IMG/VR virus record: IMGVR_UViG_3300036939_000084 | Span: 33,261 to 97,260 of that record | DNA from: a virus | Reading direction: 5' to 3' (one strand) | Length of the DNA stretch: 64,000 nucleotides | Part shown: positions 487 to 54,988 of the stretch, piece by piece | How positions within the stretch are numbered: the first letter of the stretch is position 1 | Layout: every line of letters starts with the position of its first letter | Translations under genes and position numbers: made by a program | The notes under the pieces: generated by a model | Told to the model about the DNA's origin: nothing | Databases searched by the model: none | What the model saw: only the letters and a program-made list of their open reading frames with translations

Positions 487-1945
487 CAAAATCGCCGTAA
501 TACCCCATCCTCAATCGGAGCGAAGCGGAGATAGGTTGGGGATGTAAGGCAGGGCAGCGGAGGAACGGAGCTGCCCAAACACCAAGTTGTTACTTGTAGT
601 AAAATATAGCTATAATCAAGATACATAATTAGTACCCTTCTGCTTAATGCTAGTTCTAGAAGCCAAGCTAAAAGGAAAAACTGCCCAGTACGAAGCCATT
701 GATCAGGCTATCCGTACTGGGCAGTTTATTCGTAATAAAGCTCTTCGTTTCTGGATGGACAGCAAGCCAGAAGATAAGATTAATCGCTTCTCCCTCAACA
801 ACTACTGCAAGGTATTAGCAGACAATCCTGAATTTCCCTGGGTTTCCCGGCTCAACTCAATGGCTCGTCAAGCATCGGCGGAACGAGCATGGGCTAGCAT
901 CTCTCGTTTCTTTGAGAATTGCAAGAAGAAAATTCCGGGGAAGAAAGGGTTTCCCAAGTTCAAGAAACACAGTCGCTCAGTTGAGTACAAGACCAGTGGC
1001 TGGAAACTGTCTGAAGACCGGAAGTTCTTAACTCTCAAAGACGGGTTTAACGCCGGGAGATTCAAACTCCTAGGGACTCGTGATCTTAATTTCTACGACA
1101 TCAAAGCTATTAAGCGAGTCAGAATCGTAAAAAGAGCTGATGGGTATTATGCTCAGTTCTGTATTGATGTTGAGAGAAAAGAGAAGATTCAGTATACCGG
1201 AAGTGAAATAGGGATAGACATCGGTTTAGCCCATTTCCTCACCGATTCCAGCGGGAATAAGATAGACAATCCTCGCCATCTCAGGAAAGCTCACAAAAGA
1301 TTAAAGAAGTCTCAACGTAAGCTTTCTCGCAGATATTCTAATCCCAACAAAGGGAAGAAGGGTGAGAGGATGGTCAAATCTAAATTCCCTCAATCCAAGC
1401 GCTATCACAAAGCAAGAATTCAAGTTGCTCGCAAACATTTAGAAGTAAGTAGGCGGCGGAAAGATTTTGTGGTAAAGACCGCAAGAACGCTCATCCAATC
1501 TAACGATTTGGTAGCCTACGAAGATTTGAAGGTGCGGAACATGGTAAAGAACCACAAGCTCGCACTCTCAATTAGCGATGCTGGTTGGTCGTTGTTCCGG
1601 GAGTGGCTTGAATATTTTGCTAAGGTTTTTGATAAAGTTGTCGTTGCCGTTCCTCCCCATCACACTTCTCAAAAGTGTTCCTGTTGTGGGATGGTTGTGA
1701 AAAAATCCCTATCCGTTAGGACTCACATCTGTAGATGTGGAACTGTTCTAGATAGGGATAAAAATGCAGCAATCAACATCTTGATGAAAGCGCTTGAGAT
1801 ATTAGAAAAAAATACGGCGGGGAGCGCCGAAATTCACGTTCGGGGAGATTTGCCCTCTTGGGTGGTTGGAGAAGTCCTGCTATCTAACGGCGAGTCGATG
1901 AACCGAGAATCCCCACCCTCAACGAAGTAGGGTGGGGAGCTTCAA
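487..1945 (+). mobile_element. IS200/IS605-family (IS1341-like, tnpB-only) element
   Basis: Left-end hairpin gccgtaataccccatcc...ggggatgtaaggc (~494-549); right-end hairpin ccccaccctc/agggtgggga followed by gcttcaa ending at 1945; omegaRNA expected to overlap the tnpB 3' end. Left boundary approximate. Confidence 0.8.
647..1930 (+). CDS. tnpB: TnpB RNA-guided endonuclease
   Basis: RuvC motifs IGIDIGL, AYEDL, DRDKNAAINI; Zn finger CSCCG...CRCG. Confidence 0.95.
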   Translation: MLVLEAKLKGKTAQYEAIDQAIRTGQFIRNKALRFWMDSKPEDKINRFSLNNYCKVLADNPEFPWVSRLNSMARQASAERAWASISRFFENCKKKIPGKKGFPKFKKHSRSVEYKTSGWKLSEDRKFLTLKDGFNAGRFKLLGTRDLNFYDIKAIKRVRIVKRADGYYAQFCIDVERKEKIQYTGSEIGIDIGLAHFLTDSSGNKIDNPRHLRKAHKRLKKSQRKLSRRYSNPNKGKKGERMVKSKFPQSKRYHKARIQVARKHLEVSRRRKDFVVKTARTLIQSNDLVAYEDLKVRNMVKNHKLALSISDAGWSLFREWLEYFAKVFDKVVVAVPPHHTSQKCSCCGMVVKKSLSVRTHICRCGTVLDRDKNAAINILMKALEILEKNTAGSAEIHVRGDLPSWVVGEVLLSNGESMNRESPPSTK

Positions 1946-2005
1946 TTGGGTAACGCAAAATAAAGTTACCCAACCTTGTTTTGTTTTTGTAAGGATTACC
2001 ATCAA

Positions 2006-3457
2006 ATGGCTTTAATTTCCTTAACCTCATCAGTAGCTTCTGCTAGTTCTGTTTATCAAAACAATGCGACTTACTCTCCTAACAAAGCAATAGATGGCAA
2101 TTCTTCAACTTATTACAATTCAAATGCTGCGACCACGTCAGAGCATTGGACTCTAGACTTAAACGGAATTGCGACAATTAATTTTATTAGTATTATCGGA
2201 CTCGCTAATTTTGGGAATCGCCTCAACAATATTCAAGTCATTGCTAGTGCTAATGCAGATTTCTCTTCGTCGGTAGTGGTTGGAACAACTCCATCAACTG
2301 TTTCTACTCAATCTGTTGTTATAACTCCGCCTAATCCTATTTCTAATATTCGATATATTAGGCTTCAAAAAACAGTAATTCAGAATGCAATAAATGATCT
2401 TTTAACTATTGCGGAAGTGCGAATCGATGGTGTTTTTTCTGACGCCACAACTTATACACTGACTGCTCCCGCAATATCTGTGGGATCGGTTGGTGTGGTA
2501 TCAGGTAATTTTACTGTAGCATTGCCAACTAATACAACTCTTCCTACTCCTGTAACAATTACGCCGAGTGATAATGGCGCTGGAGGAACTTTCAGTCCTA
2601 CGACAGTTCAATTATCTAAAAGTATCCTCTCTGCTACTTTTACTTATACTCCTACCACGCCAGGAGCAAAATTAATCTCAACCGTTAATAACGGAAACTT
2701 AATTAATCCATCTACTGTTCGCTATACAGCGATGGTTTTAATTCCTTTGGTTTCAGCAATAGCTTCTGCTAGCTCTGTTTATCAAAACAATGCGACTTAC
2801 TCTCCTAACAAAGCAATAGACGGCAATTCTTCAACTTATTACAATTCAAATGCTGCGACCACGTCAGAGCATTGGACTCTAGACTTAGATAGAATTGCGA
2901 CAATTAATTGTATTGGTATTATCGGACTCGCTAATTTTGGGAATCGCCTCAACAATATTCAAGTCATTGCTAGTGCTAATGCAGATTTCTCTTCGTCGGT
3001 AGTGGTTGGAACAACTCCATCAACTGTTTCTACTCAATCTGTTGTTATAACTCCGCCTAATCCTATTTCTAATATTCGATATATTAGGCTTCAAAAAACA
3101 GTAATTCAGAATGCAATAAATGATCTTTTAACTATTGCGGAAGTGCGAATCGATGGTGTTTTTTCTGACGCCACAACTTATACACTGACTGCTCCCGCAA
3201 TATCTGTGGGATCGGTTGGTGTGGTATCAGGTAATTTTACTGTAGCATTGCCAACTAATACAACTCTTCCTACTCCTGTAACAATTACGCCGAGTGATAA
3301 TGGCGCTGGAGGAACTTTCAGTCCTACGACAGTTCAATTATCTAAAAGTATCCTCTCTGCTACTTTTACTTATACTCCTACCACGTCAGGAGCAAAATTA
3401 ATCTCAACCGTTAATAACGGAAACTTGATTAATCCATCTACTGTTAATTACATAGCA
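2006..3457 (+). repeat. 726-bp near-identical tandem direct repeat (units ~2006-2731 and ~2732-3457)
   Basis: Matching landmarks offset by 726 nt (tgctag 2041/2767; aaactt 2695/3421). Confidence 0.95.
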
Positions 3458-3553
3458 ATTGCTCAAAAATATGGATTTATTGATAACAACAGAAAACAGC
3501 TAAACCGCCAGAGACTCACTTCTAATCGATTAACTGGTATAACAAGGGCTTAG
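2006..3553 (+). CDS. Virion/tail protein with two tandem discoidin (F5/8C-like) plus Ig-like modules
   Basis: ASASSVY...KAIDGNSSTYY..WTLDL motif present twice; probable start ATG 2006. Confidence 0.65.
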   Translation: MALISLTSSVASASSVYQNNATYSPNKAIDGNSSTYYNSNAATTSEHWTLDLNGIATINFISIIGLANFGNRLNNIQVIASANADFSSSVVVGTTPSTVSTQSVVITPPNPISNIRYIRLQKTVIQNAINDLLTIAEVRIDGVFSDATTYTLTAPAISVGSVGVVSGNFTVALPTNTTLPTPVTITPSDNGAGGTFSPTTVQLSKSILSATFTYTPTTPGAKLISTVNNGNLINPSTVRYTAMVLIPLVSAIASASSVYQNNATYSPNKAIDGNSSTYYNSNAATTSEHWTLDLDRIATINCIGIIGLANFGNRLNNIQVIASANADFSSSVVVGTTPSTVSTQSVVITPPNPISNIRYIRLQKTVIQNAINDLLTIAEVRIDGVFSDATTYTLTAPAISVGSVGVVSGNFTVALPTNTTLPTPVTITPSDNGAGGTFSPTTVQLSKSILSATFTYTPTTSGAKLISTVNNGNLINPSTVNYIAIAQKYGFIDNNRKQLNRQRLTSNRLTGITRA

Positions 3554-5379: not shown

Positions 5380-5471
5380 AAGGAAGCGGGGATAATCCCC
5401 GCTTTTTATTTGTTTTGTTATTTTATAACTTATTGTGCTAACCTAGATATAGAAACTCAGTTCGTCGTAAA

Positions 5472-6092
5472 ATGGCAGACCTCAAAGCGCACGACTATCG
5501 GCAAATGTTCCTAAAAGAGATAGGATTTCCGTTAATTCGGGCAAATGCCGAGCGTTTTGTACCTAGAGTCGGCGATCTTCGCAAAACTGAGAATGTTAAA
5601 GCTGTTTTCGAGGCAGCTATGCAAAAAAAAATGGAGGAACACCAAAGAGTAGAAGAAAAACAAAAACAACACGAGGCAGAGATAGAAGCTTTGCGGCAAG
5701 AACTAGAACTGGTGCGAACCAGGTTAGAGCAAGTTGAAGAACCGGAACCTAATCACACGGAAGAGGAGCCGGAGCGTCAGCTTGCTCATTATGTTGGTTC
5801 TGTATCTATGGATGCTGCCGAAAAAATCATCTGTGCTGTTCTCTGTTCAGAACAGACTGACTGCAAACATACATACAGGAGATTATCCAAGGTTTTTCAC
5901 CCAGACACAACCAGTCTTCCGAAAGACAAGGCGGCTGAATTGTTTGCACTACTCCGCCGCCTTTACGAACAAGTTGCCGAATCGAACAACTCATTCAACT
6001 CAATTCTAGGCTATGACAAATCAAGATCCCACGAACCCGATGAAAGAAAAAGCTGGATCTCCAAAGAAGATCCAGACGACATCGATTTTTAG
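5472..6092 (+). CDS. J-domain (DnaJ-like HPD) protein, copy 1
   Basis: KHTYRRLSKVFHPDTT...AAELFALLRRLYE; N-terminal helical domain, coiled coil, acidic tail EDPDDIDF. Confidence 0.8.
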   Translation: MADLKAHDYRQMFLKEIGFPLIRANAERFVPRVGDLRKTENVKAVFEAAMQKKMEEHQRVEEKQKQHEAEIEALRQELELVRTRLEQVEEPEPNHTEEEPERQLAHYVGSVSMDAAEKIICAVLCSEQTDCKHTYRRLSKVFHPDTTSLPKDKAAELFALLRRLYEQVAESNNSFNSILGYDKSRSHEPDERKSWISKEDPDDIDF

Positions 6093-6669
6093 AAGCGAAG
6101 CGGAAATTGTTGCTGCAATGGCAAGAGTTGCCGCAACACTACCAAAAGAAATCAGAGATGTCCTAAGTTTTGGAAATGGAGAAACCCAGGTCTTACAGGT
6201 AATAGGTGCTGATACTCGAAGAAACGATGCTATCTTTCATTCTTGCAAGTTGTTTTATGGTGCTGAATTTAAGAAAGGGATGCTCCTAGAAAGCCATATA
6301 TATGAATCAATAATTCGCCGTCAATACCCCCAAACACTCAAAGCGAAATTTGGGAACGAACTTGGCGGATTTATTTTTGTAGCAGAGCAGATACAGAAAG
6401 AGTTTTCCAGTTTCCCGATAATGAAGGAATGGGAAAAACTAGTTGGTGTCAAAATGGCTGTTGCTGATACAAAAGAATTCGCAAGAATTCTGATTTCTAA
6501 AGCAATGAAGGACGTGCAAAGTGACACCACTCGTTTTACTCCTTACGCCCTCTGTCAAATACCTCTACAGCTACATGCTTTGACAACAAAGAGTGATGGC
6601 TACCCACAGTGGTTTGATGAGGAGTGGCTACAAAGGATGATGAGTAAGTTTTTCCCAATCTGCCAGTAA
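6013..6669 (+). CDS. PD-(D/E)xK nuclease-fold protein, partner of J-domain copy 1
   Basis: RRNDAIF...YGAEFKKG...RRQY...GFIFVA pattern; overlaps the J gene 3' end (alternative start 6040). Confidence 0.6.
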   Translation: MTNQDPTNPMKEKAGSPKKIQTTSIFRSEAEIVAAMARVAATLPKEIRDVLSFGNGETQVLQVIGADTRRNDAIFHSCKLFYGAEFKKGMLLESHIYESIIRRQYPQTLKAKFGNELGGFIFVAEQIQKEFSSFPIMKEWEKLVGVKMAVADTKEFARILISKAMKDVQSDTTRFTPYALCQIPLQLHALTTKSDGYPQWFDEEWLQRMMSKFFPICQ

Positions 6670-6700: not shown

Positions 6701-6729
6701 AAAGCCGATGTTAATCCATCGGTTTTTTT
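6701..6729 (+). terminator. Intrinsic terminator after J/nuclease pair 1
   Basis: ccgatg-ttaatc-catcgg followed by T7. Confidence 0.75.
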
Positions 6730-8043: not shown

Positions 8044-8307
8044 ATGGTTCTGCGGTTTGAGTACTCCGATATTCCATCCCCCGTTTCAACCTATGGTTAT
8101 TACAATTCACCTACCGCACCTATCAAGAAGGTGCGGTACGACGGCACATTGATGCCTTATTTTGTGATGAAGAACGGTGGCAATCCCAGCTTGTGGCAAG
8201 ACATCTTAGAATACAACCAGATCGGGTCAGTATTAGACCTGGAGGAGGGGATAATGCTTGCAGTCCCTCAAAATACAGAAGCGTTTAGGAAGCATCCAGA
8301 AGCTTAA
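8044..8307 (+). CDS. Baseplate LysM/tail-X-like protein
   Basis: LWQDILEYNQI..VLDLEEGIMLAVP; follows baseplate J. Confidence 0.65.
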   Translation: MVLRFEYSDIPSPVSTYGYYNSPTAPIKKVRYDGTLMPYFVMKNGGNPSLWQDILEYNQIGSVLDLEEGIMLAVPQNTEAFRKHPEA

Positions 8308-10370
8308 TACCCGTACTTCTTCCTTTCTCCACCGTAATCCCATCGTCTTCTGCGCCCTACGTCTATGTGGAATGTCCTGCCCGCCTCATTTAAACCACAC
8401 CCACCATTCCAGTTAGGTTCAATGGTTTTCAGAAAATAAGTAACGAAATTCACTTCAGGAGGGCGAACATCAGCTGCATTACCGTCTAAGTGTTCGCTGT
8501 TTGGTTTTCCTCTGGCAGCCCTATTAGACACAGGATCACGGTACCAGGAAATTATGTTCCACTTGCCTTTTCCAAGCTCTTTTGTTACTCGATCTAGTTG
8601 TTGGGCAAGTGCAATTATTCCTTTCATTATTTCTTTGCTTGGCACCCGAGTACCATTTTTTGTAGCATCTCCCCACGTATAAAGGCAGCCTGGGAATATC
8701 GGATCACCCATTTTCAGTGAGCCCCATTCTGGTACAGCGATTACCTTACCGGGGTCAGTGGGTGGATTGACAGGATTAACTACCGTCACTCCCACGCTTG
8801 CTTTTTCCTGAATATTGTATCCAGCCACGGTTGTTGCTCCAAGAGCTGATTGCATTTGCAGGGCAGTACGCCTAAAAATGACTGGGCGACCAATGAAGAT
8901 GGAGGGGTTTCCATAGTCAAGTACCACATTGCTGCTTGAGGCTTGATTGGCTGACATTTCACGGATTGTGTTAGCACGGGCGATAACCACATCTCCCCGT
9001 AAAGCCGCTTCTAAAGAGGCTACTCTCCCTTGAGACTGCTGAAGACTGACAATGCCTTCAGCTTTTGTGTCAAAGCTTGTGTTTTTTGCAAATTTCAAAT
9101 CCGAGCTTTTTAGGGTAAAAAGCTCAGCGGGGGTGGTAGCTGTTTTGTTCTTGGTGGAATTTAGTTGCATTTCTTGAAGGATGTCATTTCCATCAAGTGT
9201 TCGTGCTGGGCTAGTGGGCGCTGGTGTTGGTGTAGCAACCGGAGCAGGAGAGGTTATTGGTGTCGGCGTGGCAACCGGGGCAGGAGTTGTTGCTGCTGTC
9301 GGTTTAATGGGAGAGGTTGTGGTTTTTGGAGTGGTAGCCGAGGTAGTGGGTGTTGGTTTACCACCACTCCCTTCTCCCGGTTTAGTCGCTGCCGACACAG
9401 GACTAGTGGATAAAATTTCTGCCTTTACTTTGCCATGCCCTGCGGGGACTAGTCCAATCGCTTCCGCTGCTGAATAAGATAAGTCAATATCTCTTCCCGC
9501 AACAAATGGACCTCGGTCATTGACTCGTACCACTACAGACTTGTTGTTATAGGTAACCCTGATTTGTGTGCCAAATGGCAGCGTTTTATGAGCACAGGTT
9601 AATTTCTTGTAGTCAAATATCTCTCCGTTCGCTGTTTTGCGACCGTCAAAGTTATCGGTCTTTCCGTAAAATGATGCGCCCCAGGTGTGAGTTGATTTGA
9701 CTTGCGCTCCCGCAGTTGCAACACCTGCACTCGTATCTTCAACTTTGTTGGGACTGTCAGGGGTTTCGCCATTACTGGTGACAGTGGGTCCGGAATTCTG
9801 TTGAAGTGCGATCGCTGCATCAACTGCAACCACAATCGTTCCGTCAGGCGGAATCCTTCCGTACTTATAAATCTTGCCCCCCGAAAACTTGTTCACCCGA
9901 TACCCGTTGTTGAAGCCAATTTCAACCTCAACCGTTTGGGCATCTTTCAAGGATGCATAGATGGAGGCGTCGGGGTCATTAAGCACAAACCGGGCTTCGG
10001 AATGGCGACGGGTGTGCAGCCAAACATGGGGTGGATGTTGTTTAACCAGGATTTGCCCCTGGGAAGAGTCAAACACCTTGTCGTCAATCTTGACTCGGAA
10101 CTGCGCGACTAGTCGCTCATCAGCCCCTCTATCCTTTTTTTCTTCCTCTGTTCCTGGTAGCGGTTGAATTAAATTACTAGTAATAGTACTCACCTCAACC
10201 TTGTCGAAGCTAAGGGGCTTAACAGGGTTGGTGGTCTTAGCGAGGGGGGTTAGCTTTGCTGTTTTGCTGATATTCAGCGTAGAAGCATCTAGCTTGGAGG
10301 TATCAGCTGAGGTAAACAATAATGTCGGTTGGGATGATGCAATTTTCTTAGTGTTTGGTGTTTCTACCAT
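8304..10370 (-). CDS. Tail hub (GpD-like, N-terminal part) protein with an RlpA-like lytic transglycosylase and a C-terminal peptidase M15A domain
   Basis: RlpA: GASFYG..TANGEIFD..LTCAHKTLPFGT..VVVRVNDRGPFVAGRDIDLSYSAA; M15A: SWYRDP..N...SEHLDGNAADV...HIDVG; Pro/Thr linker. Confidence 0.75.
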   Translation of the reverse strand: MVETPNTKKIASSQPTLLFTSADTSKLDASTLNISKTAKLTPLAKTTNPVKPLSFDKVEVSTITSNLIQPLPGTEEEKKDRGADERLVAQFRVKIDDKVFDSSQGQILVKQHPPHVWLHTRRHSEARFVLNDPDASIYASLKDAQTVEVEIGFNNGYRVNKFSGGKIYKYGRIPPDGTIVVAVDAAIALQQNSGPTVTSNGETPDSPNKVEDTSAGVATAGAQVKSTHTWGASFYGKTDNFDGRKTANGEIFDYKKLTCAHKTLPFGTQIRVTYNNKSVVVRVNDRGPFVAGRDIDLSYSAAEAIGLVPAGHGKVKAEILSTSPVSAATKPGEGSGGKPTPTTSATTPKTTTSPIKPTAATTPAPVATPTPITSPAPVATPTPAPTSPARTLDGNDILQEMQLNSTKNKTATTPAELFTLKSSDLKFAKNTSFDTKAEGIVSLQQSQGRVASLEAALRGDVVIARANTIREMSANQASSSNVVLDYGNPSIFIGRPVIFRRTALQMQSALGATTVAGYNIQEKASVGVTVVNPVNPPTDPGKVIAVPEWGSLKMGDPIFPGCLYTWGDATKNGTRVPSKEIMKGIIALAQQLDRVTKELGKGKWNIISWYRDPVSNRAARGKPNSEHLDGNAADVRPPEVNFVTYFLKTIEPNWNGGCGLNEAGRTFHIDVGRRRRWDYGGERKKYGY

Positions 10371-25684: not shown

Positions 25685-26914
25685 CTACACTGACTTGAGT
25701 ACAGGTACAGTGTAGGCTTCCAAGACAATCCGGCTATCACTGAGGAGACTCTTGGCTTTAAGAACGGGATGCCCCGCCGCTCTATTTTTGATATTAATAG
25801 CTGCATTATGATCGCGGTCTAAACTACACCCACAATGGGGACAGTCGTGCCAGCGAACATGCAGCTTTTTTGGTACTTTCTCGCCGCAATTAGAGCAATC
25901 TTGTGAGGTGTTATGGGCACTGACAGGGACAACCAACAAACCAGCATTTTCGGCTTTGTTTGTCAGTATCGACAGAAAGCTTGACCACCCAGCATCCAGC
26001 ACAGATTTAGCTAATCGGGTACGAGAAAGACCTTTAACATTCAACTCTTCGTGAGCAACTACGTCATATTTTGATAACAGCCACTTGGCGGTTTTGAAGT
26101 GAAAGTCTTTTCTCTTGTCAGCAACTTTCTTATGCTGTTTCCCCAACTGTTTAATAGCTTTAAGCCTACCGTTACTTCCCTTCTTACGGCGTGATACCCG
26201 CTTTTGAATGACTCGTAAGCGTTTTTGCGCCTTGCGATAGTGCTGAGGGATGGCAATCGTTTCACCCTCGGAAGTTGTTAAAAATTCCTTTAGTCCTACA
26301 TCAATTCCGGTAATTTTGTTCGGATTGAAATCTGGCTTAATTTCGGGAACGGTTTTGTCTTCGAGGGAAAGCGTGAGGTAATAGCCATCAGCCTTCTTAG
26401 TAACAGAAGCGGTTTTAATCTTGAACCCATCTGGGATAGGGCGATGCAGAACAACCTTAACTTTGCCAAACATCGGTAAGTTAATCTGGTTGCCTTGCAA
26501 ACACCCATCCTTCATCTGAGGATAAGTAAAGGTGCGATAACGATTCTTCGCTTTAAACCTAGGCTTACCGCTTCTTTTACCGCTACTATCACCCTTTAAA
26601 AAACGGTCAAATGTTACCTTGACTCGCTTAACTACATCTTGAATAACCTGGGAATAAATCTCGCTGTACCAGGGATGAGTTTTCTTGAGTTGGGGTAGCG
26701 TCTTTTTTTGACTGTAATAGTCAGGATTATCCCTCAGCTCTCGTAGATGGCAGACAAGGGGGCAAGCATTGACAGGAGAACGATTTTGCTCATACCAGTT
26801 AAACCTATCAGCCAACAAATAGTTGTACTGAGCACAAAGCATTGCAAGCCACCTATCAAAGTTGGCGGCTTGCAATGCTGTTGGTCGTAATCGGTACTGG
26901 TAGGCTGTTCTCAT
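25685..26914 (-). CDS. tnpB: TnpB RNA-guided endonuclease
   Basis: [11 protein letters not shown]; [24 protein letters not shown]; CSNCG/CPHCG. Confidence 0.95.
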
Positions 26915-43530: not shown

Positions 43531-44139
43531 TTAGAAATTGAGCAGTAGTTGACACTTCCTTTCAATTTCTAGCTTCGCATGCCTACTTTCCGCAATCTTT
43601 CCAGAATTTTTGCCCCAAATTTCAAGTTTCTTCACCACGCTCTTCACCAGGTTGTTGTAGGTGTGGATTCGATCTTTGCGATCCAGCTCATGATTAATAT
43701 CATTGAGAACCTTCAACGTCTTTTTACTAGGAGGAAGTGGCGAAACATACCAGATATCGGCTTTCCGACCAACCATTTTCTCGTAGATTTTGCGATAATG
43801 GCGACCGAATAGCGTTTCCAAAATGATGTCGCTGTCGATTATTTCGGTTTTGCATTCGCCGAGAATATCAGAACCGTTATCGTATCTTTCTACAAGAAAA
43901 TCAACAGAGCGATGTTTCCCCGGTTGAAGCAAGTCTGGCATATAGAATTCACCAAAGCATTGGGCGACGCCACGGAATTCGCGAGGAAGCAGGAAAAACA
44001 TAGTTGCAATTTCTCGCAAGAAGTCGTCATGGTGAATGCGGCGATCTCCTGATGCTAGGTACGATTCTCCATTAACCCAGACGGGTTTCCAGTCGCCAGA
44101 ATAGCTGATTTGATTAGAACTCACTGTCAAAATCCTCAA
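43531..44139 (-). CDS. PD-(D/E)xK nuclease-fold protein, partner of J-domain copy 3
   Basis: HRSVDFLV..ILGECKTE..ETLFGRHY..DIWYVS. Confidence 0.65.
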   Translation of the reverse strand: MRILTVSSNQISYSGDWKPVWVNGESYLASGDRRIHHDDFLREIATMFFLLPREFRGVAQCFGEFYMPDLLQPGKHRSVDFLVERYDNGSDILGECKTEIIDSDIILETLFGRHYRKIYEKMVGRKADIWYVSPLPPSKKTLKVLNDINHELDRKDRIHTYNNLVKSVVKKLEIWGKNSGKIAESRHAKLEIERKCQLLLNF

Positions 44140-44719
44140 GATCTAATTCGATTTTTTCTGCCACTGCATAGTTTCCATAAGAACTTCCCCAACCTTCATG
44201 GACAGAATCGACATCATCAAAAGCATTAGACAGAATTGCAAAAAGCCTATTAGATTGCTCACCCGGTAGTTGAGAACTATCTGGATGGAATGACCGGGCA
44301 AGTGATCGATAGACAGGTTTCAATTCCTCTTTCTCAAAAGAAAGAATGGTCGATAAGACTCTTTTAGCCAAGTCATCTGGAACATGAGTCATGTATTCCG
44401 CCAAGTAGTCTTCCGCTGAAAGGTTAGTATCTTCTTCCCGGTGGTTAGCCTCATGCTTGGCTTGGTCAGATGTTTGGGAATGTTCTTCCAAGGGAGGGGA
44501 TTGGTCTTGAAAACCATTGCTGAATTGATAGGTTGGCGCACTTGGAACAAGTTTGAATTCGATCACCGAAAGAACTACTTGCCAGTCATACTTTGAACGC
44601 ATAGGGTAGCTTGCCATCAGAGGGGCGGCAATAACTACAAAAGACTTCTTGGCAGGTAGACCTGTCATGCGCGTAAATTCGGCTTTAAGTTCTTTGAGAG
44701 ACAAATTTTCCAGTTCCAC
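44114..44719 (-). CDS. J-domain protein, copy 3 (divergent)
   Basis: ELKPVYRSLARSFHPDSS..NRLFAILSNAFD; tail LEDFDSEF; GGAGG SD before GTG 44719. Confidence 0.8.
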   Translation of the reverse strand: MELENLSLKELKAEFTRMTGLPAKKSFVVIAAPLMASYPMRSKYDWQVVLSVIEFKLVPSAPTYQFSNGFQDQSPPLEEHSQTSDQAKHEANHREEDTNLSAEDYLAEYMTHVPDDLAKRVLSTILSFEKEELKPVYRSLARSFHPDSSQLPGEQSNRLFAILSNAFDDVDSVHEGWGSSYGNYAVAEKIELDLEDFDSEF

Positions 44720-44769
44720 AGCAAACCTCCAATTAATGAAGCGCACCACTTTTGTGGTGCGCTGTGTGT

Positions 44770-45066
44770 TTAGAACTTGTTCGGTTCTATAGATTGATGA
44801 CGAATCTTCCAGTTGCTTACTAGTGCGTCGGCAGCCGCTTCAGCAGTACCAAATCGACGGTTATCAAAATCGCTAGTCAACCAATGAGGGAGACATATGG
44901 AACGCACGACTCGACCGATGTAAGCATGATTGTAATAGACAACGAAAGCTTCGGTGAGATCATCGATCGCTTCCATGACTATCTCATTCTTTTTTATTGG
45001 TGCGGAAAACGTTAACATGGCATTATGTGTGATTTTGCGGATGCAGAGTTTCTCAGTCTGCTGCAT
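44770..45066 (-). CDS. Hypothetical protein
   Basis: Between the HTH gene and J-domain copy 3. Confidence 0.55.
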   Translation of the reverse strand: MQQTEKLCIRKITHNAMLTFSAPIKKNEIVMEAIDDLTEAFVVYYNHAYIGRVVRSICLPHWLTSDFDNRRFGTAEAAADALVSNWKIRHQSIEPNKF

Positions 45067-45105
45067 CCGCCTTTACGTTAACCATAATAGCACATGTTGG
45101 TGCGA

Positions 45106-45303
45106 TTATGTTTTTCTTTTTCTTCCCTTGGGATAACCGCGCTTCCTGTCCCTGACTACATCTAAGTCTTTTTCGGCGATCGCCCAGTATGATCCGATCT
45201 TTATAGCAGGCAGTTTCCCTGACTTGATCAGTCTACTGACTCGGCTCCTATCTATCCCAAGGGCTTTTGCCGCTTCCGACGTGCTGAGCATTTTTTCTTT
45301 CAT
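45106..45303 (-). CDS. Excisionase-like HTH DNA-binding protein
   Basis: MLSTSEAAKALGIDRSRVSRLIKSGKLPAIKIGSYWAI. Confidence 0.85.
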   Translation of the reverse strand: MKEKMLSTSEAAKALGIDRSRVSRLIKSGKLPAIKIGSYWAIAEKDLDVVRDRKRGYPKGRKRKT

Positions 45304-45481: not shown

Positions 45482-46255
45482 ATGCGAACTATAACGATTA
45501 CTTCACTATCAGGGGGCATGGGGAAAACCACCTCATCCATCCTCTTGGCAAAGAAGCTAGCTCAAATGGGGAACAAGACACTTGCTATAGACTGCGATCC
45601 TCAATCAAGTCTGACCTTCTTTCTGGGTCACGCGATTGAAAATAATGACCCCACTCTTTTGGAAATTCTGATGGGCATAGTAGAACCCAAGGCTGCTATT
45701 TATCCGACCTCTGACAATAATCTGTACCTGATTCCAGCAGATGGGCATCTTGCAAAAGCTCAAGAGCATTTAGCTAGCAGTGGTATGGGAGCGGCTGTAC
45801 TGAAGCAGTTGTTGCAGGAGGTTGCTATCTTCGACTTCTGTGTGATCGACTCACCTCCCCAAAAGACACAGCTAGCGATGACAGCAGTCGGTGCGGCCGA
45901 TCATTTGCTTGTCCCAATAGAATCAACGACAAAGGGGGTAAACTCACTGCTTCGCACGTTGGAATTAGAACAGTCCCTGCGGAAACTGGGTGCGTTCCAA
46001 GGAGATATCCTGGGCGTTATTCCCTTCCGAGACAGATGGTTTGGTCGCAGCCAGTCAACCGACAGTCGCGATGCTATTCAGATGATTGGGGAGATTTTCC
46101 CTGATATTCAGGTATTTCCTTCTATTTTGGAAAGCGAGCAATTTAAAAAGGCCCTCCGGAAAGGTGTCACTCTAGCGGACGCAGGATTTAAAGACTTAGA
46201 GTACTCATTCGACGTAATCATCGAAAAATGTCTAACGATTTCCTCAAGCAACTAA
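45482..46255 (+). CDS. parA: ParA partition ATPase
   Basis: Deviant Walker A SLSGGMGKTT, DCDPQSSLT, VIDSPP. Confidence 0.95.
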   Translation: MRTITITSLSGGMGKTTSSILLAKKLAQMGNKTLAIDCDPQSSLTFFLGHAIENNDPTLLEILMGIVEPKAAIYPTSDNNLYLIPADGHLAKAQEHLASSGMGAAVLKQLLQEVAIFDFCVIDSPPQKTQLAMTAVGAADHLLVPIESTTKGVNSLLRTLELEQSLRKLGAFQGDILGVIPFRDRWFGRSQSTDSRDAIQMIGEIFPDIQVFPSILESEQFKKALRKGVTLADAGFKDLEYSFDVIIEKCLTISSSN

Positions 46256-46620
46256 ACCAAAGACCAAAGGTTCCGCCACGTACCGACGAAGAAGTGCAAA
46301 ACAATCCCGAAGTTTCTGTACCACGAAACAATGGTACAACAAAATCCGTGTACAAGGATATCGAAGAATCCGGGATTAAAACCGTCCGAAGCTCCCTGCT
46401 TCTAGAGGAGTCGATGCATTTCAAGTTCCGCGATTGGTGCAATCGCAACGGTATTATCAGGGCCTGTTGGGTTGAGGCGGCGATGATAATAGCAGAAAAA
46501 GACCCCCAGTTGCTAAAGCAGATTGAAGAGTTGGCGAAAGAACTTACCTCAGAGCGCAAAGAGGAGGCGGATGACAAGCGGCGGGTAACCATGTGGGAAA
46601 ATCGAAAAAAAACGAGGTGA
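46228..46620 (+). CDS. ParA partner (type Ib ParG-like centromere-binding protein)
   Basis: Small, overlaps parA, disordered N-terminus then RHH-like segment; no ParB/Srx motif seen. Confidence 0.65.
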   Translation: MSNDFLKQLNQRPKVPPRTDEEVQNNPEVSVPRNNGTTKSVYKDIEESGIKTVRSSLLLEESMHFKFRDWCNRNGIIRACWVEAAMIIAEKDPQLLKQIEELAKELTSERKEEADDKRRVTMWENRKKTR

Positions 46621-46775
46621 CCACAGTGCCCTATAAACTCAAAAAAGAAGGTTCGGACTGGTTTGTTATCAATCCAGACACTGGCGAGAAAAAGAATAAA
46701 AAACCTCTCACTGAAGAAGAGGCTAAGAAATATTTGCGAGCGCTGTACGCGAATGTTCCAGACGCTAGAGATTAA
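46617..46775 (+). CDS. Small conserved phage protein (PYKLKK..VINPDTG..EAKKYLRALYAN)
   Basis: GTGA overlap; motif recognised from phage ORFs; terminator 46774-46803. Confidence 0.6.
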   Translation: MTTVPYKLKKEGSDWFVINPDTGEKKNKKPLTEEEAKKYLRALYANVPDARD

Positions 46776-46818
46776 AAAAAGCACCCGGATGGGTGCTTTT
46801 TTTAAGACAGCCAGGATA

Positions 46819-47487
46819 TTACAAAGATTCTAATATCCGAGCAAACTCGATGTAATTTTTCCTTAACCACTCTTGGTCAAACCACTCAGGATAACCATCT
46901 GAAGCGGTTGTTAAGGCATGGAGTTGCAAGGGTATTTGACCCAAAGTGTAAAGAGAATAGTTGGAGACATTGTTTTGCACATCAAGCAAAGCCTTCCTTA
47001 CCAATATCCTTGCGAAGTTTTTTGTGTCTGCAACGAATATATTTGTATCGAAAACCTCAGACAAGGTTTTGATAATTCCTGCCGGAGAATCGGGGGAAAT
47101 ACTGCTGTCAATAGATTCCCCTACAAATATCATTCCCGCCAAATCTGAGCCATGTCTAGCTCGAAGGGTTAAAGAATATCGCCTCCTGATTAAACAATCG
47201 TAAAGATGAGCATCGCGGAGAATGCCTTTTTTAAACTCAGCTCCATAAAATTTAGAGCAAGAACAAAAAACATTGTCTGTTCTCCGGGTATCTGCTCCAA
47301 TCACTTGCAATACATCAGACTGTCCATTTCCAAAGCTAAGCCTATCCCTGACCTCTTTCGGTAAAGTGGCAGCAATTCTCGACATTGCTGCCACAATTTC
47401 CGCTTCGGAGTTAAAAGTCAATATCCCCGATGTCGTTAACCCAGTAGCTCGTTGTACCAGTTTCGGATTCTGATTCTTTTCGTTCAT
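46819..47487 (-). CDS. PD-(D/E)xK nuclease-fold protein, partner of J-domain copy 2
   Basis: Clear paralog of 6013..6669 (SEAEIVAAM, QVIGADTRRTD, FYGAEFKKG, QIPLQLHALTT..DGYP.WFD.EWL). Confidence 0.65.
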   Translation of the reverse strand: MNEKNQNPKLVQRATGLTTSGILTFNSEAEIVAAMSRIAATLPKEVRDRLSFGNGQSDVLQVIGADTRRTDNVFCSCSKFYGAEFKKGILRDAHLYDCLIRRRYSLTLRARHGSDLAGMIFVGESIDSSISPDSPAGIIKTLSEVFDTNIFVADTKNFARILVRKALLDVQNNVSNYSLYTLGQIPLQLHALTTASDGYPEWFDQEWLRKNYIEFARILESL

Positions 47488-48037
47488 CGTTTACAATGTT
47501 ATTTGCGAGAGGTCGTGAATTAATCTGCTCGTACAAGCGGCGAACAAGCGCAAACAAGGTCGCCGCTTCGTCTTTTGGAAGACGTGTCGTATCTGGATGA
47601 AAGACCTTAGAAAGTCTTCTGTACGTGTCTTTGGCGGCCCCCTTATCGGCATAAAAAACTGCGCTTAATACATCTTCAGCAGTTGGCAGTGAGACGGAAG
47701 CAATATATTCAGCCAACTGTCGCTCAGGTTCTTTTGTTGGTTCTTCAGGGCTGAGTTCTACTTGTCTAGATTTCAGTTCTTCAATTTCAGCCTGGGCGAC
47801 ATCTAGTTTTTGGGTGAGTTCGGACAATTGGGATTGCTGCCTCGCCAGCTCTTCGCTCATATCTTTGGGCTGTTGCTCTTTCCAGCGCATAGCTGCCTCA
47901 AAAACAATTTTCAGGTTATCTGTTTTTCTTAGATCACCGACTTCCTGTACAAAGCGCTTCGCATTTGCCTTGATCAGTGGGAAGCCAATCTCCTCTAAAA
48001 ACTTTTGTCGATAATCTGATGCTTTAAGGTCTGCCAT
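47411..48037 (-). CDS. J-domain protein, copy 2
   Basis: Clear paralog of 5472..6092 (MADLKA.DYRQ, YRRLSKVFHPDTT, tail DIGDIDF). Confidence 0.8.
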   Translation of the reverse strand: MADLKASDYRQKFLEEIGFPLIKANAKRFVQEVGDLRKTDNLKIVFEAAMRWKEQQPKDMSEELARQQSQLSELTQKLDVAQAEIEELKSRQVELSPEEPTKEPERQLAEYIASVSLPTAEDVLSAVFYADKGAAKDTYRRLSKVFHPDTTRLPKDEAATLFALVRRLYEQINSRPLANNIVNDERKESESETGTTSYWVNDIGDIDF

Positions 48038-48086
48038 GTCTGTTTTCGCACACTAAATTAATTATAGCTATCGTTACCGAGAGTGA

Positions 48087-48323
48087 CTACTTAGATTTTG
48101 AATTTTTCATAACGGCAAGAAATTCATCATCGGAAAGATGGAAAAATTTCTTTATCGCGATCGCCCTTTCTATCGTCAAAAAGTCCATGCGTCCATTCCG
48201 CCAATGATTCAGGGTAGTGTAAGGGATATCTACACCTGTCGCATCCCTTATCCTCTCCCTAGCTGTAGGGACACTACCGTAAATCATGAGAAGGTCGTGA
48301 AGGGCTAGTCCTGTCTTATCCAT
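48087..48323 (-). CDS. Cro/CI-type HTH regulator
   Basis: IRDATGVDIPYTTLNHWRNG..LTIERAIAIKKFF. Confidence 0.65.
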   Translation of the reverse strand: MDKTGLALHDLLMIYGSVPTARERIRDATGVDIPYTTLNHWRNGRMDFLTIERAIAIKKFFHLSDDEFLAVMKNSKSK

Positions 48324-48397: not shown

Positions 48398-48784
48398 TTA
48401 TGACTTTTTCGCAAATTGCAAAAAGTTGGAACGGAAATAGATTGCCAACTTGCCGAAAACAGGCAAAACACGGTCTTGGGCAAACTGGTGAAATTGAACC
48501 TCTAGTTGAACGATGGTATTTGAGGAGCGAGCCTTTTTGCCGAGGGAGTGCGATCGCCTCATCAAGCCAAAAAACCCAACAATCAAAAACCCACCCAGCG
48601 CCCCCAACGCGACCAGCGTATACCAAGCGAGCACAGCCAAAGAATAAATGAAGTGCATAATCTTCGGCACAGCATCAAAAAATTCCCGCACCCCATCCTT
48701 GATTACTGGTAGGCGAGACTGCCATTGGGTGACAGCCAGGAATAGACATTGAGAAAGATTGTTTTGCGCGGTTACAAGTTGCAT
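48398..48784 (-). CDS. Possible membrane protein
   Basis: Long hydrophobic stretch; a competing antisense ORF exists. Confidence 0.4.
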   Translation of the reverse strand: MQLVTAQNNLSQCLFLAVTQWQSRLPVIKDGVREFFDAVPKIMHFIYSLAVLAWYTLVALGALGGFLIVGFFGLMRRSHSLGKKARSSNTIVQLEVQFHQFAQDRVLPVFGKLAIYFRSNFLQFAKKS

Positions 48785-48909
48785 TGCGAATTCCTCTGTT
48801 GTTTACTAGGCGTGAAGCGCTTGCCCATATTGTTATAAAATTAATACACAAACATTGCTTCTGTCAACCCCAATTTCTTAGAATTAATAATAAACCTTTA
48901 ATATCAGTC

Positions 48910-49464
48910 ATGGATGCTAACACCGCCGAGGCTACCATCTGGGCAAAAAATTTACTCAAACGCGACGACTGGGTTATCCTTGATACCGAAACAACGGGTT
49001 TGGATGCAAACGCTGAAATTTGCCAGATAGCTATTTGCAACCATCGTGGCAAAGCCGTTATGAACACCTTAGTTAAACCTGGCGTCGAGATGACGATGGG
49101 GGCCTACATGGTGCATGGAATTTCGGACGATGATTTCAAAAATTTCCCTATGTTTTCGGGCGTCTATCACCAGCTTCAAGAAGCAGTAAGGGGAAAAACG
49201 GTCATAATCTACAATGCAAAATTCGATAGACGAATCATTCGCCATTGCTGCACTGCATACAACCTACCCATCATTCGCTGCAAAGGTATCGAATGTCTAA
49301 TGGAAGAATACAGTAGATGGTATCCCCACTATCGGAAGCGGGGTGGGTATAAGTGGAAAAAGCTGCCAGGGGGTGACCACTCTGCTATTGGTGATTGCTT
49401 AGCAGCGCTCCAAGTTATTTACAAGATGGCTGGCGTCGAAAACAAAATAGCGCTCTCGTATTGA
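48910..49464 (+). CDS. DEDDh 3'-5' exonuclease (DnaQ-like)
   Basis: ILDTETTG, IYNAKFD, HSAIGDC; ATG 48910 after palindrome 48888. Confidence 0.9.
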   Translation: MDANTAEATIWAKNLLKRDDWVILDTETTGLDANAEICQIAICNHRGKAVMNTLVKPGVEMTMGAYMVHGISDDDFKNFPMFSGVYHQLQEAVRGKTVIIYNAKFDRRIIRHCCTAYNLPIIRCKGIECLMEEYSRWYPHYRKRGGYKWKKLPGGDHSAIGDCLAALQVIYKMAGVENKIALSY

Positions 49465-49989: not shown

Positions 49990-50355
49990 ATGACTATATA
50001 TTTTGGCTTCGCGATCGCTGACAGCATGATTCCGGATGACGCCGACATTCAGAAGCGCAAACTAGAAATTGAGGAGGCTAAAGAATTGATTCAGACTGCT
50101 GTGCCATGCGTGAATGCCTCGCATACCGCAACGATTGAAGCTATGACTGAACGATTCGGGATTCAACTAGAAATTCCCGAAAAACCACCTATGGTTAATC
50201 TCCAGTATGGTGACGTGTTGGTAGTTATGGGCGTTAGAGGGCTACCTCGGCTCACAGATCGCCATCACTACACGGAAGAAGAGATAGCGGCTGCGTCTTT
50301 TAAGTTCAGCTCGTATGAAATATTTGAAGATTTAAGAGAGCTGTACGCAAACTAG
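49990..50355 (+). CDS. DUF1874/STIV-B116-like protein (AcrIII-1 ring nuclease candidate)
   Basis: IYF..AI..SMI; IEEAKELI; SHTATI; VNL.YGDVLVV; LPRL..TEEEI follow the DUF1874 pattern from memory. Confidence 0.6.
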   Translation: MTIYFGFAIADSMIPDDADIQKRKLEIEEAKELIQTAVPCVNASHTATIEAMTERFGIQLEIPEKPPMVNLQYGDVLVVMGVRGLPRLTDRHHYTEEEIAAASFKFSSYEIFEDLRELYAN

Positions 50356-53213: not shown

Positions 53214-53435
53214 TCAAAACATCTTTCCTCTCCAAAAACGATGTCGATCTTGGATTAGCAAATATTGAGAATAGCTTGGCTGTAAAGGATCACAATTAAT
53301 TAGACTGTTGAGTTGTTTCATTTCGGATTCCCAAAAAGTCAGATCCACAGGCGGATACCGAGAATTCCAGTGATGAGTTCGGAGATATCGTCGCAAAGCT
53401 TCTCGTTCATGCCAAAGAGTGAAATTTTTAGACAT
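53214..53435 (-). CDS. Hypothetical protein
   Basis: ATG 53435 next to near-palindrome 53440. Confidence 0.5.
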   Translation of the reverse strand: MSKNFTLWHEREALRRYLRTHHWNSRYPPVDLTFWESEMKQLNSLINCDPLQPSYSQYLLIQDRHRFWRGKMF

Positions 53436-54573
53436 CGACCAATAAACCTTTAAGACAACTTGCCATGTCCGTGATCGCCCCCGGCAGCATCCCCATCGAC
53501 AGCATCTTGATCCGCTCATTCGCCGACAACTCGACGAGCTTGCCCTCATGTGACAAACCATACCTGGTACAGTCTGTCATCTCCCCCATTATGCGTTCAA
53601 TTTCGGTTGGCAGGGGAGGTCGGGTTTCACCGTTGGGCATCCTCACTTTCATGTGGCCGGTACCAGGCTGACGATACCCTGAGCGTTTCTGCCAGTTCAT
53701 TCCCCGAATAGTGGGAGCGAAGCGCGTGTATACTCGTTCCCCCGCTGCTGCCCTCATCACGAAAGCGGTTGCTCCCTTTTCCAGTACATTCTGCAACGTC
53801 GCCCAGTGGTAGGCAAAGTTCTCAAACTCTGCATCCACGGACAGGAGTTGACCCAAGCCAAAACAGCAGAACTTGAGAGACGGAGGTGGAGATGCATCAG
53901 CTAAATTGCTGATACTCAGCGTCTTTTCCTTAAATGCGCTAAGCCTCTTAAAGAAGTGGTTTGCAATTTGAGCGGGAGCCTTGCGACTCAACAAAGGGAA
54001 TACCCCGGCTAGTGCCTGAACATTCAAATCAATACACGGTTGACCAAGATCTAATAAATCATTTCGGACGCCGATTAGATAAATCCGTTGGCGCAACTGA
54101 GGTGCCCAGTGGGTACCATCAATAACACCAGAACAACCAGAGTATCCAGCCTCGCTTAAGGCGGATAAAAACTCCAGATAATCAGTTCCTGGCGGACGGT
54201 CTTTTACTTTCCGGGGAGAGCTGAGCATTCCTGGGACATTCTCAAACAGAATCCCCCTAGGCTGCTTGTCGAGAACCACTCGCACATACTCGAAAGAGAG
54301 ACTACCAATTTCACTATGGATTCCCTGCTGCATCCCGCCAGAGCTGAATGCTGTACAAGGGCTGCCGCCCAGAATAATGTCGGTGTCCGGAAAGGCGGAG
54401 GAAGAATAGCTACAGATATCTCCTTCAATCGTTTTGCAATTTGCAAAACGATAGCGGTGGACTGACAAAGCCTTGTCATCTATATCATTGCCGCAGATGA
54501 CTTCAATTCCTGCTTTAACTAATCCTGCGGTACCAAGTCCAGCGCCGCAAAACAAATGTAGAGCTGTTAGCAT
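53428..54573 (-). CDS. DNA cytosine-5 methyltransferase
   Basis: Motifs LFCGAG, GGSPC, ILFENV, PQLRQRIYLIG; start ATG 54573. Confidence 0.9.
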   Translation of the reverse strand: MLTALHLFCGAGLGTAGLVKAGIEVICGNDIDDKALSVHRYRFANCKTIEGDICSYSSSAFPDTDIILGGSPCTAFSSGGMQQGIHSEIGSLSFEYVRVVLDKQPRGILFENVPGMLSSPRKVKDRPPGTDYLEFLSALSEAGYSGCSGVIDGTHWAPQLRQRIYLIGVRNDLLDLGQPCIDLNVQALAGVFPLLSRKAPAQIANHFFKRLSAFKEKTLSISNLADASPPPSLKFCCFGLGQLLSVDAEFENFAYHWATLQNVLEKGATAFVMRAAAGERVYTRFAPTIRGMNWQKRSGYRQPGTGHMKVRMPNGETRPPLPTEIERIMGEMTDCTRYGLSHEGKLVELSANERIKMLSMGMLPGAITDMASCLKGLLVDV

Positions 54574-54988
54574 TTTTGCTCCTCCAGTTTTTGCAACACC
54601 CGCGCCACGATCTTGTCGCAATGACAAGTACGGGGGGAGCACAACACATAAGGTATACATTGTTTCTCGCCCGAACCATCTGAAAGATCCGCATCATCTC
54701 CGCTGAAACCTGACGAGATTTTGGATTTTTAAATGTTGGCGAAATCTGCAATCCCTGCTGCTTCCAAATCTCTAAGGAAATGTGGATATTGAGATAATGG
54801 CGATAAGCCAAAAGGTTCTCTTCTAACCACTCGTCATAAGCTTGGCAGACAGTGAGGCGATCGCACTCCTTCCTCATCTCAAACGGATTTCCCAAGACCG
54901 AGGAGCGATCGCACCGAACCTGCAACCACCCCTTCTCGCCAACCCAGCCACTTCGCAACGACCCAACTTTAATTTGCCCTGACTTCAT
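54567..54988 (-). pseudogene. DUF4326-like protein with a 1-nt deletion near 54642 (mutation or sequencing error)
   Basis: DRSSVLGNPF motif; adding one G restores MCWCSPRTCHCD and a stop coupled to the MTase start (ATGCTAA). Confidence 0.7.

Follow-up and report, generated by a model that had tools for sequence, protein, structure and literature searches.

The question raised by this locus is what an overlapping couple of genes, one encoding a J-domain protein (A) and the other a nuclease-like protein (B), does in a viral element that carries it three times. The window, that is, the whole stretch of DNA analysed, comprises 64,000 nucleotides (positions 33,261 to 97,260) of the IMG/VR record IMGVR_UViG_3300036939_000084, a 107-kb sequence from a biocrust metagenome that is classed as a provirus and is 63% complete. 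The cyanobacterial HIP1 octamer is present in 60 copies in the window (about 2 are expected), which also encodes ParA, DnaB, DnaG, TnpB and lysis and tail-type genes; the carrier of the three pairs is a cyanobacterial phage or phage-plasmid. Each A-B pair is an accessory module of such phages and phage-plasmids, most likely self-contained and with translational coupling of its two genes. Beyond this we infer DnaK dependence, nuclease activity and a biological role for the pairs, and we give an even chance to the reading in which A is a dedicated J-adaptor that brings DnaK to B, its nuclease client.

The three pairs occupy the following open reading frames (ORFs), given in window positions.

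5472..6092, plus strand: A1, ORF of 206 amino acids
5472-5636, within A1: N-terminal helical domain (about residues 1-55), followed by a coiled-coil linker
5808-5996, within A1: J-domain (about residues 113-175), with HPD at residues 143-145 (5898-5906)
About 6039-6089, plus strand: acidic tail of A1, ending in ..DPDDIDF
6013..6669, plus strand: B1, 218 amino acids from the ATG at 6013 or 209 from the ATG at 6040; sites E29 (6097-6099), D72 (6226-6228), E85-x-K87 (6265-6273) and R103/Y105
47411..48037, minus strand: A2, 208 amino acids, architecture like that of A1, tail ending in ..DIGDIDF
46819..47487, minus strand: B2, 222 amino acids, 58% identical to B1
44114..44749, minus strand: A3, 211 amino acids from the GTG at 44749 or 201 from the GTG at 44719; diverged N-domain, J-domain with HPD, tail ending in ..EDFDSEF
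43531..44139, minus strand: B3, 202 amino acids; R..D (D80), E95-C-K97 and E....RxY in the same order as in B1 and B2

This ORF check agrees with the first-pass annotation of the window, which had described three overlapping two-gene units: all three are present, as is every motif quoted there, and the overlaps of 80, 77 and 26 nt between A and B (pairs 1, 2 and 3) are reproduced with the longest ORFs. The starts chosen by gene callers (M10 of B1 and V6 of B3) give overlaps of 53 and 11 nt, and the true B starts possibly lie a few codons inward, though always before the A stop codon. Conservation of B sets in at the A stop or up to 61 nt ahead of it, which indicates that a short stretch is read in two frames, one giving the functionally important tail of A and the other the poorly conserved leader of B.

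Co-occurrence of A and B elsewhere had been named beforehand as a point on which the proposal could fail. An overlapping, same-strand gene with an HPD motif was found upstream of B in 15/15 assessable loci, taking the window and other contigs together and including distant members, and B lies in the +1 frame relative to A in each of these 15 pairs. The pairing is far beyond chance. The loci include close relatives of the element (L008, L009 and L020), a contig with a phage tail gene (L010) and distant versions on two contigs from cyanobacterial assemblies (L012 and L023; 52 and 74 kb); a complete 122-kb phage with direct terminal repeats (DTR), G001, carries one pair in an unrelated backbone. 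The two structural proteins encoded on either side of pair 1 in the window were searched for in G001 and not found, and no viral contig with the baseplate-like neighbour of pair 1 was found. Two loci stand outside the 15 assessable ones: L021 encodes a very distant B-like protein of 355 amino acids with an N-terminal extension of its own and without an A gene upstream, and L025 holds a B-like gene that is cut by the contig end, also without an upstream A gene. Most A-B loci are rich in HIP1, and they belong mostly to cyanobacterial phages or plasmids. Scans of 185,579 species genomes for patterns of the A and B families found none, and a metagenome scan gave only 2 further loci, the reach of both scans being limited to close relatives; the family is rare. 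The constant +1 offset hints at a programmed +1 frameshift that would yield an A-B fusion, a suggestion raised by the reading frames and explained equally well by common descent.

A1 and A2 share 50% identity, and A3 matches A1 across the J-domain region and the C-terminal half (BLASTP E 8e-16). In an alignment of 12 members the protein divides into four modules. First comes a helical domain of about 55 N-terminal residues, which is conserved; a charged and variable coiled-coil linker, the J-domain, and a linker with an acidic tip follow. The HPD motif is invariant (15/15 sequences, including the three window proteins) and lies between a basic helix II (YRRLSKVF) and a segment with the helix III pattern. 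Pfam DnaJ (PF00226) is the top match for A1, A2 and A3, with 21.5, 19.7 and 19.0 bits, respectively; the G001 copy reaches 25.8 bits, and P0020 has a precomputed PF00226 match. A profile of the A family matches solved J-domains (DNAJB8, DNAJB6, CbpA and DnaJ) over helices I-III, about 55 residues, with E values down to 7e-7, which argues that the A proteins are divergent J-domains and not non-members. The J-domain proposed by the first-pass annotation is thus, as judged from sequence comparison, divergent but complete.

The two ends of A carry features of their own. The N-terminal domain by itself has no Pfam match and is named by no library, and the ESM Atlas gave nothing usable either for this domain or for B1; we presume some likeness to a SAP/HeH-type helix-turn-helix. 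The domain is separable, being found as a stand-alone gene of 72 amino acids directly downstream of dnaG in G001 (L015, 1495-1713), and this position after the DnaG primase gene suggests that it binds a replication component or DNA. A distant A homologue (L023, 2989-3840, on a contig of NCBI GCA_010672265.1), which overlaps a B homologue, has two tandem N-domains followed by an HPD domain and an acidic tail. At the opposite end, the tails of A finish in an acidic ..D-I-(D/W/P/S)-F, the tips being ..DDIDF, ..DDIWF, ..EDIPF or ..DFDSEF; Phe is the last residue in 11/15 of the A genes tallied, and Ile, Tyr or Asp in the others. By eye, we take this tip to resemble the C-terminal tip of the bacterial single-stranded DNA-binding protein (SSB), ..DDDIPF. 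Acidic, Phe-ending tails are also present on gp2.5 and gp4 of phage T7, and such tails are docking peptides for partner enzymes, many of them nucleases.

B1 and B2, at 58% identity to one another, define a new protein family. Only 9 close relatives were found among 5.8 billion clustered proteins, and a profile search of 1.84 billion representatives returned 11 matches, 9 of which are apparently true relatives; the other two, P0030 and P0034, are long repeat-rich proteins matched over many short stretches. B1, B2 and B3 have no match in Pfam, PHROG, NCBIfam or PADLOC, and the B family profile none among PDB sequences; remote relatives of B give sub-threshold matches to PDDEXK_4 (E 0.074) and NERD (E 0.081). 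In 14 aligned sequences with 19-67% identity to B1, the residues E29, R69, D72, E85, K87, R103, Y105 and F122 are invariant or nearly so, and the most conserved block is a C-terminal ..SDGYPxWF.. motif.

The AlphaFold2 model of B1 (pLDDT 71.8, pTM 0.72) has the alpha-beta-beta-beta-alpha-beta order of elements expected for a PD-(D/E)xK core, and it places D72 at the start of one strand, E85-x-K87 on the next and the E29 helix in front, which is the classical layout of this superfamily. Its structural neighbours in PDB, AFDB, BFVD and Swiss-Prot are almost wholly PD-(D/E)xK proteins, namely Mus81/XPF/Hef, N.BspD6I, the FokI cleavage domain, NucS, EcoT38I, SacI, Mrr and the nuclease domains of Cap4 and Avs, together with the inactive ERCC1, FAAP24, Eme1 and Rpb5. 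The best VIA-align Z score is 7.3 and the best Foldseek E value against PDB 5e-3; single uncharacterised entries score better (E 7.6e-6 in AFDB and 3.4e-5 in BFVD). The first-pass annotation had expected B to model as a PD-(D/E)xK protein, and this is most likely its fold, with conserved catalytic residues and modest structural scores: on the strength of the model we consider the fold probable. B is likely to be catalytically competent, as judged from the conserved residues, and its intact E...D...ExK site makes a DNA nuclease its most likely identity.

B3 occupies a separate position. Its family has four members, and BLASTP detected no similarity between B3 and B1 or B2 (E about 1), a caveat on the three paralogous pairs described in the first-pass annotation. 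Profile comparison with hhalign aligned B3 with B1/B2 over 137 columns (P 6.4e-4), with R..D, ExK and E....RxY in register, and B3 and B1 are reciprocal best matches of hidden Markov models among the 455 ORFs of the window (E 0.014 and 0.69). The AlphaFold2 model of B3, obtained with 4 sequences, has a pLDDT of 42. Since B3 lies behind a homologous A gene, with the same +1 frame offset as in the other pairs, it is probably a remote homologue of B1 and B2. The paralogy stands for the A proteins, which are all homologous, and for B1 with B2, and is marginal for B3.

Binding of A to B was addressed by predicting the complex of B1 residues 24-218 and A1 residues 100-206 from custom alignments. The score was 0.58 (runs of 0.58, 0.64 and 0.46), against 0.01 for the best control, which the tool rates as 'weak support'. 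In the calibration of the tool, 58/80 solved complexes and 2/110 mismatched pairs reached the mark, and scores of 0.60 or lower were those of 7/80 solved complexes and of both mismatches that passed. The confident contacts of A1 are residues 193-195, 200-204 and 206, an interface (193-206) that coincides with the tip of the tail; on the B1 side they involve residues 118-121, 137-138, 147-151, 158-166 and 205-212. The predicted contact of the tip agrees with the prior idea derived from its conservation and thus lends modest support to docking of the A tail on B. Co-variation of the tail with B was considered as evidence of cognate pairing and dropped, given the coding overlap and a ..D-I-x-F tip that is common to the B1 and B2 clades.

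The surroundings of the genes, as far as they bear on transcription, contain the following features.

5381..5407, plus strand: terminator-like hairpin just upstream of A1, closing the preceding unit of small ORFs
5444-5473: AT-rich, promoter-like stretch after that hairpin
6705..6729, plus strand: hairpin and T7 run immediately downstream of B1, at the end of the A1-B1 unit; recognised in the sequence itself and missing from the consensus scan list
48061..48089, minus strand: promoter-like site TAGTCA-17-TATAAT (10/12) directly upstream of A2
46772..46805: perfect 15-bp inverted repeat bordered by runs of A and T, resembling a bidirectional terminator, immediately downstream of B2
45303-45106, minus strand: gene for an HTH_17 regulator, directly upstream of A3 on the same strand
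45066-44770, minus strand: ORF of 98 amino acids, directly upstream of A3 on the same strand

Judged by these signals, pair 1 and pair 2 each seem to be transcribed as a unit of their own, whereas pair 3 possibly forms one operon with the HTH_17 gene and the 98-amino-acid ORF (44770..45303), divergent from the ParA operon. Pair 1 lies within a block of small orphan genes amid tail and baseplate genes. Pairs 2 and 3 flank the ParA partition operon and are sited between an RNase_T-type exonuclease gene and this operon, and the same synteny of the pair 2/3 region (exonuclease, ParA operon) is found in L008, L009 and L020.

The number of pairs per element varies, with three in the window, at least 2 in L008 (12 kb examined) and 1 in G001. 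In L020 pair 3 is kept and pair 2 is absent; the interval between the exonuclease gene and ParA is occupied there by other genes, including one with RRXRR and HNH domains (IscB-like). Comparison with L008 gave 93-100% DNA identity across ParA, its partner gene, A3 and B3, as against 62-68% in a segment that begins in the 3' part of A2 and ends shortly after the B2 stop. At the protein level the identity to L008 falls from 98% in the N-domain of A2 to 88% in its J-domain and 65% in its tail, B2 itself being 65% identical. Between B2 and its L008 allele the synonymous divergence (dS) is 2.7, i.e. saturated, and the ratio of non-synonymous to synonymous divergence (dN/dS) is about 0.1, values which indicate replacement of B2 by an old functional allele and not fast evolution in place. 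Positive selection acting in situ on B2 is ruled out by the same two values. As judged from these comparisons, the A and B genes are under purifying selection and the cassettes are swapped between phages. The first-pass annotation had taken the retention of three copies as a sign of selection; a copy number that ranges from 1 to 3, purifying selection and exchange of the cassettes describe the findings better. No common direct or inverted repeats flank the cassettes, so that ends of the transposon or homing type were not found, and a reading of the cassettes as free-standing homing endonucleases is not supported.

Several observations were made on the genes next to pairs 2 and 3. The ParA operon (45482-46620, plus strand) encodes a ParA-type ATPase of 257 amino acids and an overlapping partner of 130 amino acids. 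Near-identical copies of this partner in other contigs carry a precomputed PF26392 (McdB) label, and a Pfam scan of the window copy gave no match at E 0.01; if the two genes are of the McdAB type, their presence on a cyanophage or plasmid would be out of the ordinary. The exonuclease gene (48784-49464, plus strand), of the RNase_T/DnaQ type, adjoins pair 2; it lies on the other strand, some 750 bp away from where A2 starts. Enzymes of the exonuclease I type bind SSB tails, and this exonuclease might therefore be a further target of the SSB-like tip of A.

The reading to which we give an even chance can be set out as a sequence of steps. A would be a dedicated J-domain adaptor of the class-C type, targeted by its N-terminal helical domain to DNA or to a partner (probably localising the complex in this way) and probably dimerised by its coiled coil. 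HPD J-domains switch on the ATPase of Hsp70 proteins; that of A would recruit the DnaK of the host and switch on its ATPase, and since no Hsp70 gene was found in the record, host DnaK is the one that the J-domains would have to use. The acidic, Phe-ending tip would dock onto B, and A would hold B and pass it to DnaK, which would remodel it for release, activation, recycling or restraint. With B handed over in this manner, its nuclease activity would be governed by the condition of the Hsp70 system in the host. As for the purpose of such an arrangement, an optional, exchangeable and multi-copy module argues for a role in conflict or maintenance over one in core replication, and addiction, exclusion of rival elements, abortive infection or counter-defence is more likely than core replication. 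A conflict or addiction role within the adaptor-client reading is held more tentatively than the adaptor itself, at somewhat short of an even chance.

A number of results weigh against this adaptor-client reading. A1, A2 and A3 all fall under the gathering cut-off of Pfam DnaJ (27.8 bits). The B1 model was built from 9 sequences and is poor at residues 52-71, and all its fold scores fall short of the levels at which the tools consider a match safe (Z 8; Foldseek PDB E 0.001). In one natural allele of B (P0006, from L008) the lysine of ExK is replaced by Val, the sole exception in the alignment of 14 sequences, so that some copies may not require catalysis. The score of the A1-B1 complex lies in a band that the tool describes as 'more often wrong than right unless likely beforehand', and the predicted interface is away from the catalytic face formed by D72, E85 and K87, so that simple plugging of the active site is not indicated. 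Co-inheritance of the A tail with B is no independent evidence of binding, because the region coding for the tail physically overlaps B. Finally, the ParA operon and the exonuclease near pairs 2 and 3, and the N-domain gene beside dnaG in G001, fit a function in replication or maintenance equally well.

Other explanations were considered as well. An upstream gene that overlaps the downstream one is the typical layout of toxin-antitoxin systems, and the partition operon flanked by pairs 2 and 3, the optional and exchanged cassettes and the predicted contact of the A tail with B would all suit a type II toxin-antitoxin or plasmid-addiction system, in which a stable toxin with nuclease activity, B, would be neutralised through direct action of a labile antitoxin, A. 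The location of pairs 2 and 3 beside a partition operon would fit an addiction or replication-linked role. The J-domain might then serve only the folding or stability of A, which would be a DnaK-'addicted' antitoxin comparable to those of the SecB-dependent systems, or it might make the release of the toxin sensitive to titration of chaperones in infection or stress; chaperone-dependent antitoxins that also defend against phage are a precedent (PMC5105189; 10.1101/2024.02.24.581848). Neither protein, however, matches a toxin-antitoxin, abortive infection or defence family, both have about 200 amino acids, and A, with its four modules, is bigger and more complex than usual antitoxins. The predicted interface leaves the active site uncovered, three copies per element are unusual for addiction, and a pair is also present in the complete DTR phage G001, which gives no sign of plasmid maintenance. 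Taking both sides together, we regard a toxin-antitoxin system as unlikely.

The position of pairs 2 and 3 between the exonuclease and the ParA operon, with its synteny in the three close relatives, and the free-standing N-domain directly after dnaG would also be expected of an accessory to replication, recombination or maintenance. A would then use DnaK to remodel a DNA-bound complex, and its SSB-like tail would dock on the replisome or on a nuclease of DNA repair. B would be either a nuclease of the resolvase or flap type that recognises DNA structure, or a nickase specific for an origin or another site. The structure-specific nucleases Mus81/XPF/Hef and NucS are among the best structural neighbours of B1, the A tip resembles the SSB tip ..DDDIPF by eye, and the record contains no SSB gene of its own. 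Such a function is nevertheless improbable in view of pair 1, a separate unit amid tail and baseplate genes, of the dispensability of pair 2 in L020, of a copy number of 1 to 3, and of B alleles that diverge down to 65% within otherwise identical backbones, unlike core replication genes. Very unlikely, in our estimate, is that B is a catalytically irrelevant DNA-binding or scaffold protein with the PD-(D/E)xK fold, or a look-alike of this fold, and that the pair is a chaperone-targeting module, for instance for host take-over in the manner of the phage J-protein Rki. The modest fold scores, the allele lacking the lysine and the many inactive domains with this fold (ERCC1, FAAP24, Eme1 and Rpb5 are among the matches of B1) point in this direction, whereas the retention of E29, D72, E85 and K87 in all but one of 14 members at 19-67% identity, under purifying selection, speaks against it.

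A wider proposal goes further than the adaptor-client reading, and we hold it to be doubtful. The pairs would be the phage-borne PD-(D/E)xK branch of a larger, hitherto undescribed class of 'J-adaptor plus nuclease' conflict modules. In these, the Hsp70 of the host would license or restrain the nuclease by way of a private J-protein whose SSB-like C-terminal tip holds on to it, and up to three diverged copies would serve one phage against rival elements or host defences, whether as weapons or as addiction devices.

Other genes of the element were also recorded. The window contains two TnpB genes with OrfB_IS605 and Cas12f1-like TNB domains (647-1930, plus strand; 25685-26914, minus strand), and the relatives L017 and L019 have one TnpB gene each near their A-B pair. 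A protein of 688 amino acids (8304-10370, minus strand) combines lytic transglycosylase (DPBB_1) and Peptidase_M15 domains and is probably a virion-associated or lysis peptidoglycan hydrolase; another of 525 amino acids (1976-3553, plus strand), with two F5/8 type C (discoidin, galactose-binding-like) domains, may plausibly serve as a fibre or in receptor binding. The replication block includes a gene for a C-5 cytosine DNA methyltransferase (53428-54660, minus strand), and in L008 a DNA_methylase gene adjoins a DUF4326 gene. An ORF of 121 amino acids (49990-50355, plus strand) gave a sub-threshold Pfam match to a STIV_B116-like family (E 1.5e-4; 22.3 vs 26 bits). Comparison of the region with phage and plasmid collections by megablast gave no match.

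It remains to compare the A-B pairs with known systems. J-proteins of class C deliver Hsp70 to one client for remodelling, as occurs with HscB and IscU, with auxilin and clathrin and with T antigen, and DnaJ and DnaK remodel the lambda P-DnaB complex and the RepA protein of P1. Dedicated J-proteins for single Hsp70 clients are thus already known, and to HscB, auxilin and T antigen must be added AtcJ. In Shewanella oneidensis, AtcJ binds AtcC, its operon partner, by a short C-terminal motif and recruits DnaK (PMC6715715). AtcJ-AtcC is the nearest mechanistic analogue of the A-B module: in both cases a small dedicated J-protein is encoded beside its partner, and a short C-terminal motif with a crucial aromatic residue brings DnaK (PMC6715715; 10.64898/2026.09.07.749886), as would be the case for A. 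The differences are substantial, since AtcJ has 94 amino acids and a PX7W motif, and AtcC is no nuclease and acts in the cold through modulation of RNA polymerase, whereas A has additional N-terminal and coiled-coil modules, an acidic ..D-I-x-F tip, a partner with the predicted PD-(D/E)xK fold and a phage setting. No sequence relationship between A and AtcJ was found outside the J-domain; the NCBIfam model of AtcJ matches only the J-domain of A (E 0.03-0.06), and the A tails lack PX7W. By analogy, A would work like AtcJ and is not a member of the AtcJ family.

Among phage J-proteins the nearest to A is Rki of the T4-like phage RB43, which acts on the host DnaK (PMC3486835). Rki, too, is a phage-encoded orphan J-protein that addresses the host DnaK through HPD while its non-J part sets the target (PMC3486835), but its J-domain is N-terminal, it acts alone, it stabilises sigma-32, it has no coupled nuclease gene, and its non-J parts are dissimilar to those of A. 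The nearest link of a PD-(D/E)xK effector to DnaJ/DnaK is found in bNACHT25 with DnaJ, since in bNACHT25/32 a PD-(D/E)xK DNase is tied to DnaJ/DnaK in a conflict of phage and bacterium (PMC12169576). There, the general DnaJ of the host is required for activation and mediates sensing by a large bacterial NACHT protein (PMC12169576), whereas the A-B module would join a private J-protein to a small stand-alone nuclease on a phage. The toxin-antitoxin-chaperone (TAC) systems are the nearest case of chaperone-dependent toxin control, with a toxin held in check through a partner that depends on a chaperone and a role in phage defence (PMC5105189; 10.1101/2024.02.24.581848). They consist of three genes, with a SecB-like chaperone and toxins of the HigBA, MqsRA or HicAB type, whereas the A-B pair lacks a chaperone gene, a ChAD element and a related toxin family. 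The A-B units are two genes between terminators, and no chaperone gene was seen beside any pair. With respect to SSB, A lacks the oligonucleotide-binding (OB) fold and is not an SSB, the likeness of the tips being one seen by eye.

Searches for known toxin and antitoxin families in Pfam, NCBIfam and PADLOC gave no match, and PADLOC-DB 2.0 returned only coiled-coil noise on A (JetC, E 2e-3; PDC-S06, E 6.5e-3) and nothing on B. The first-pass annotation had not recognised a named system either, and none matches in the scans of Pfam, PHROG, NCBIfam and PADLOC. No described system matches the A-B pairs, in which a known design, a dedicated J-adaptor with its client, would be realised on two new protein families. 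The module is small, consisting of two genes of about 200 codons each. If the adaptor-client reading is true, a phage that provides a private J-adaptor together with its own nuclease would represent a new coupling of DNA cutting to the chaperone state of the host, whose chaperone network is disturbed by infection, heat and desiccation, conditions of relevance to the cyanobacteria of biocrusts.

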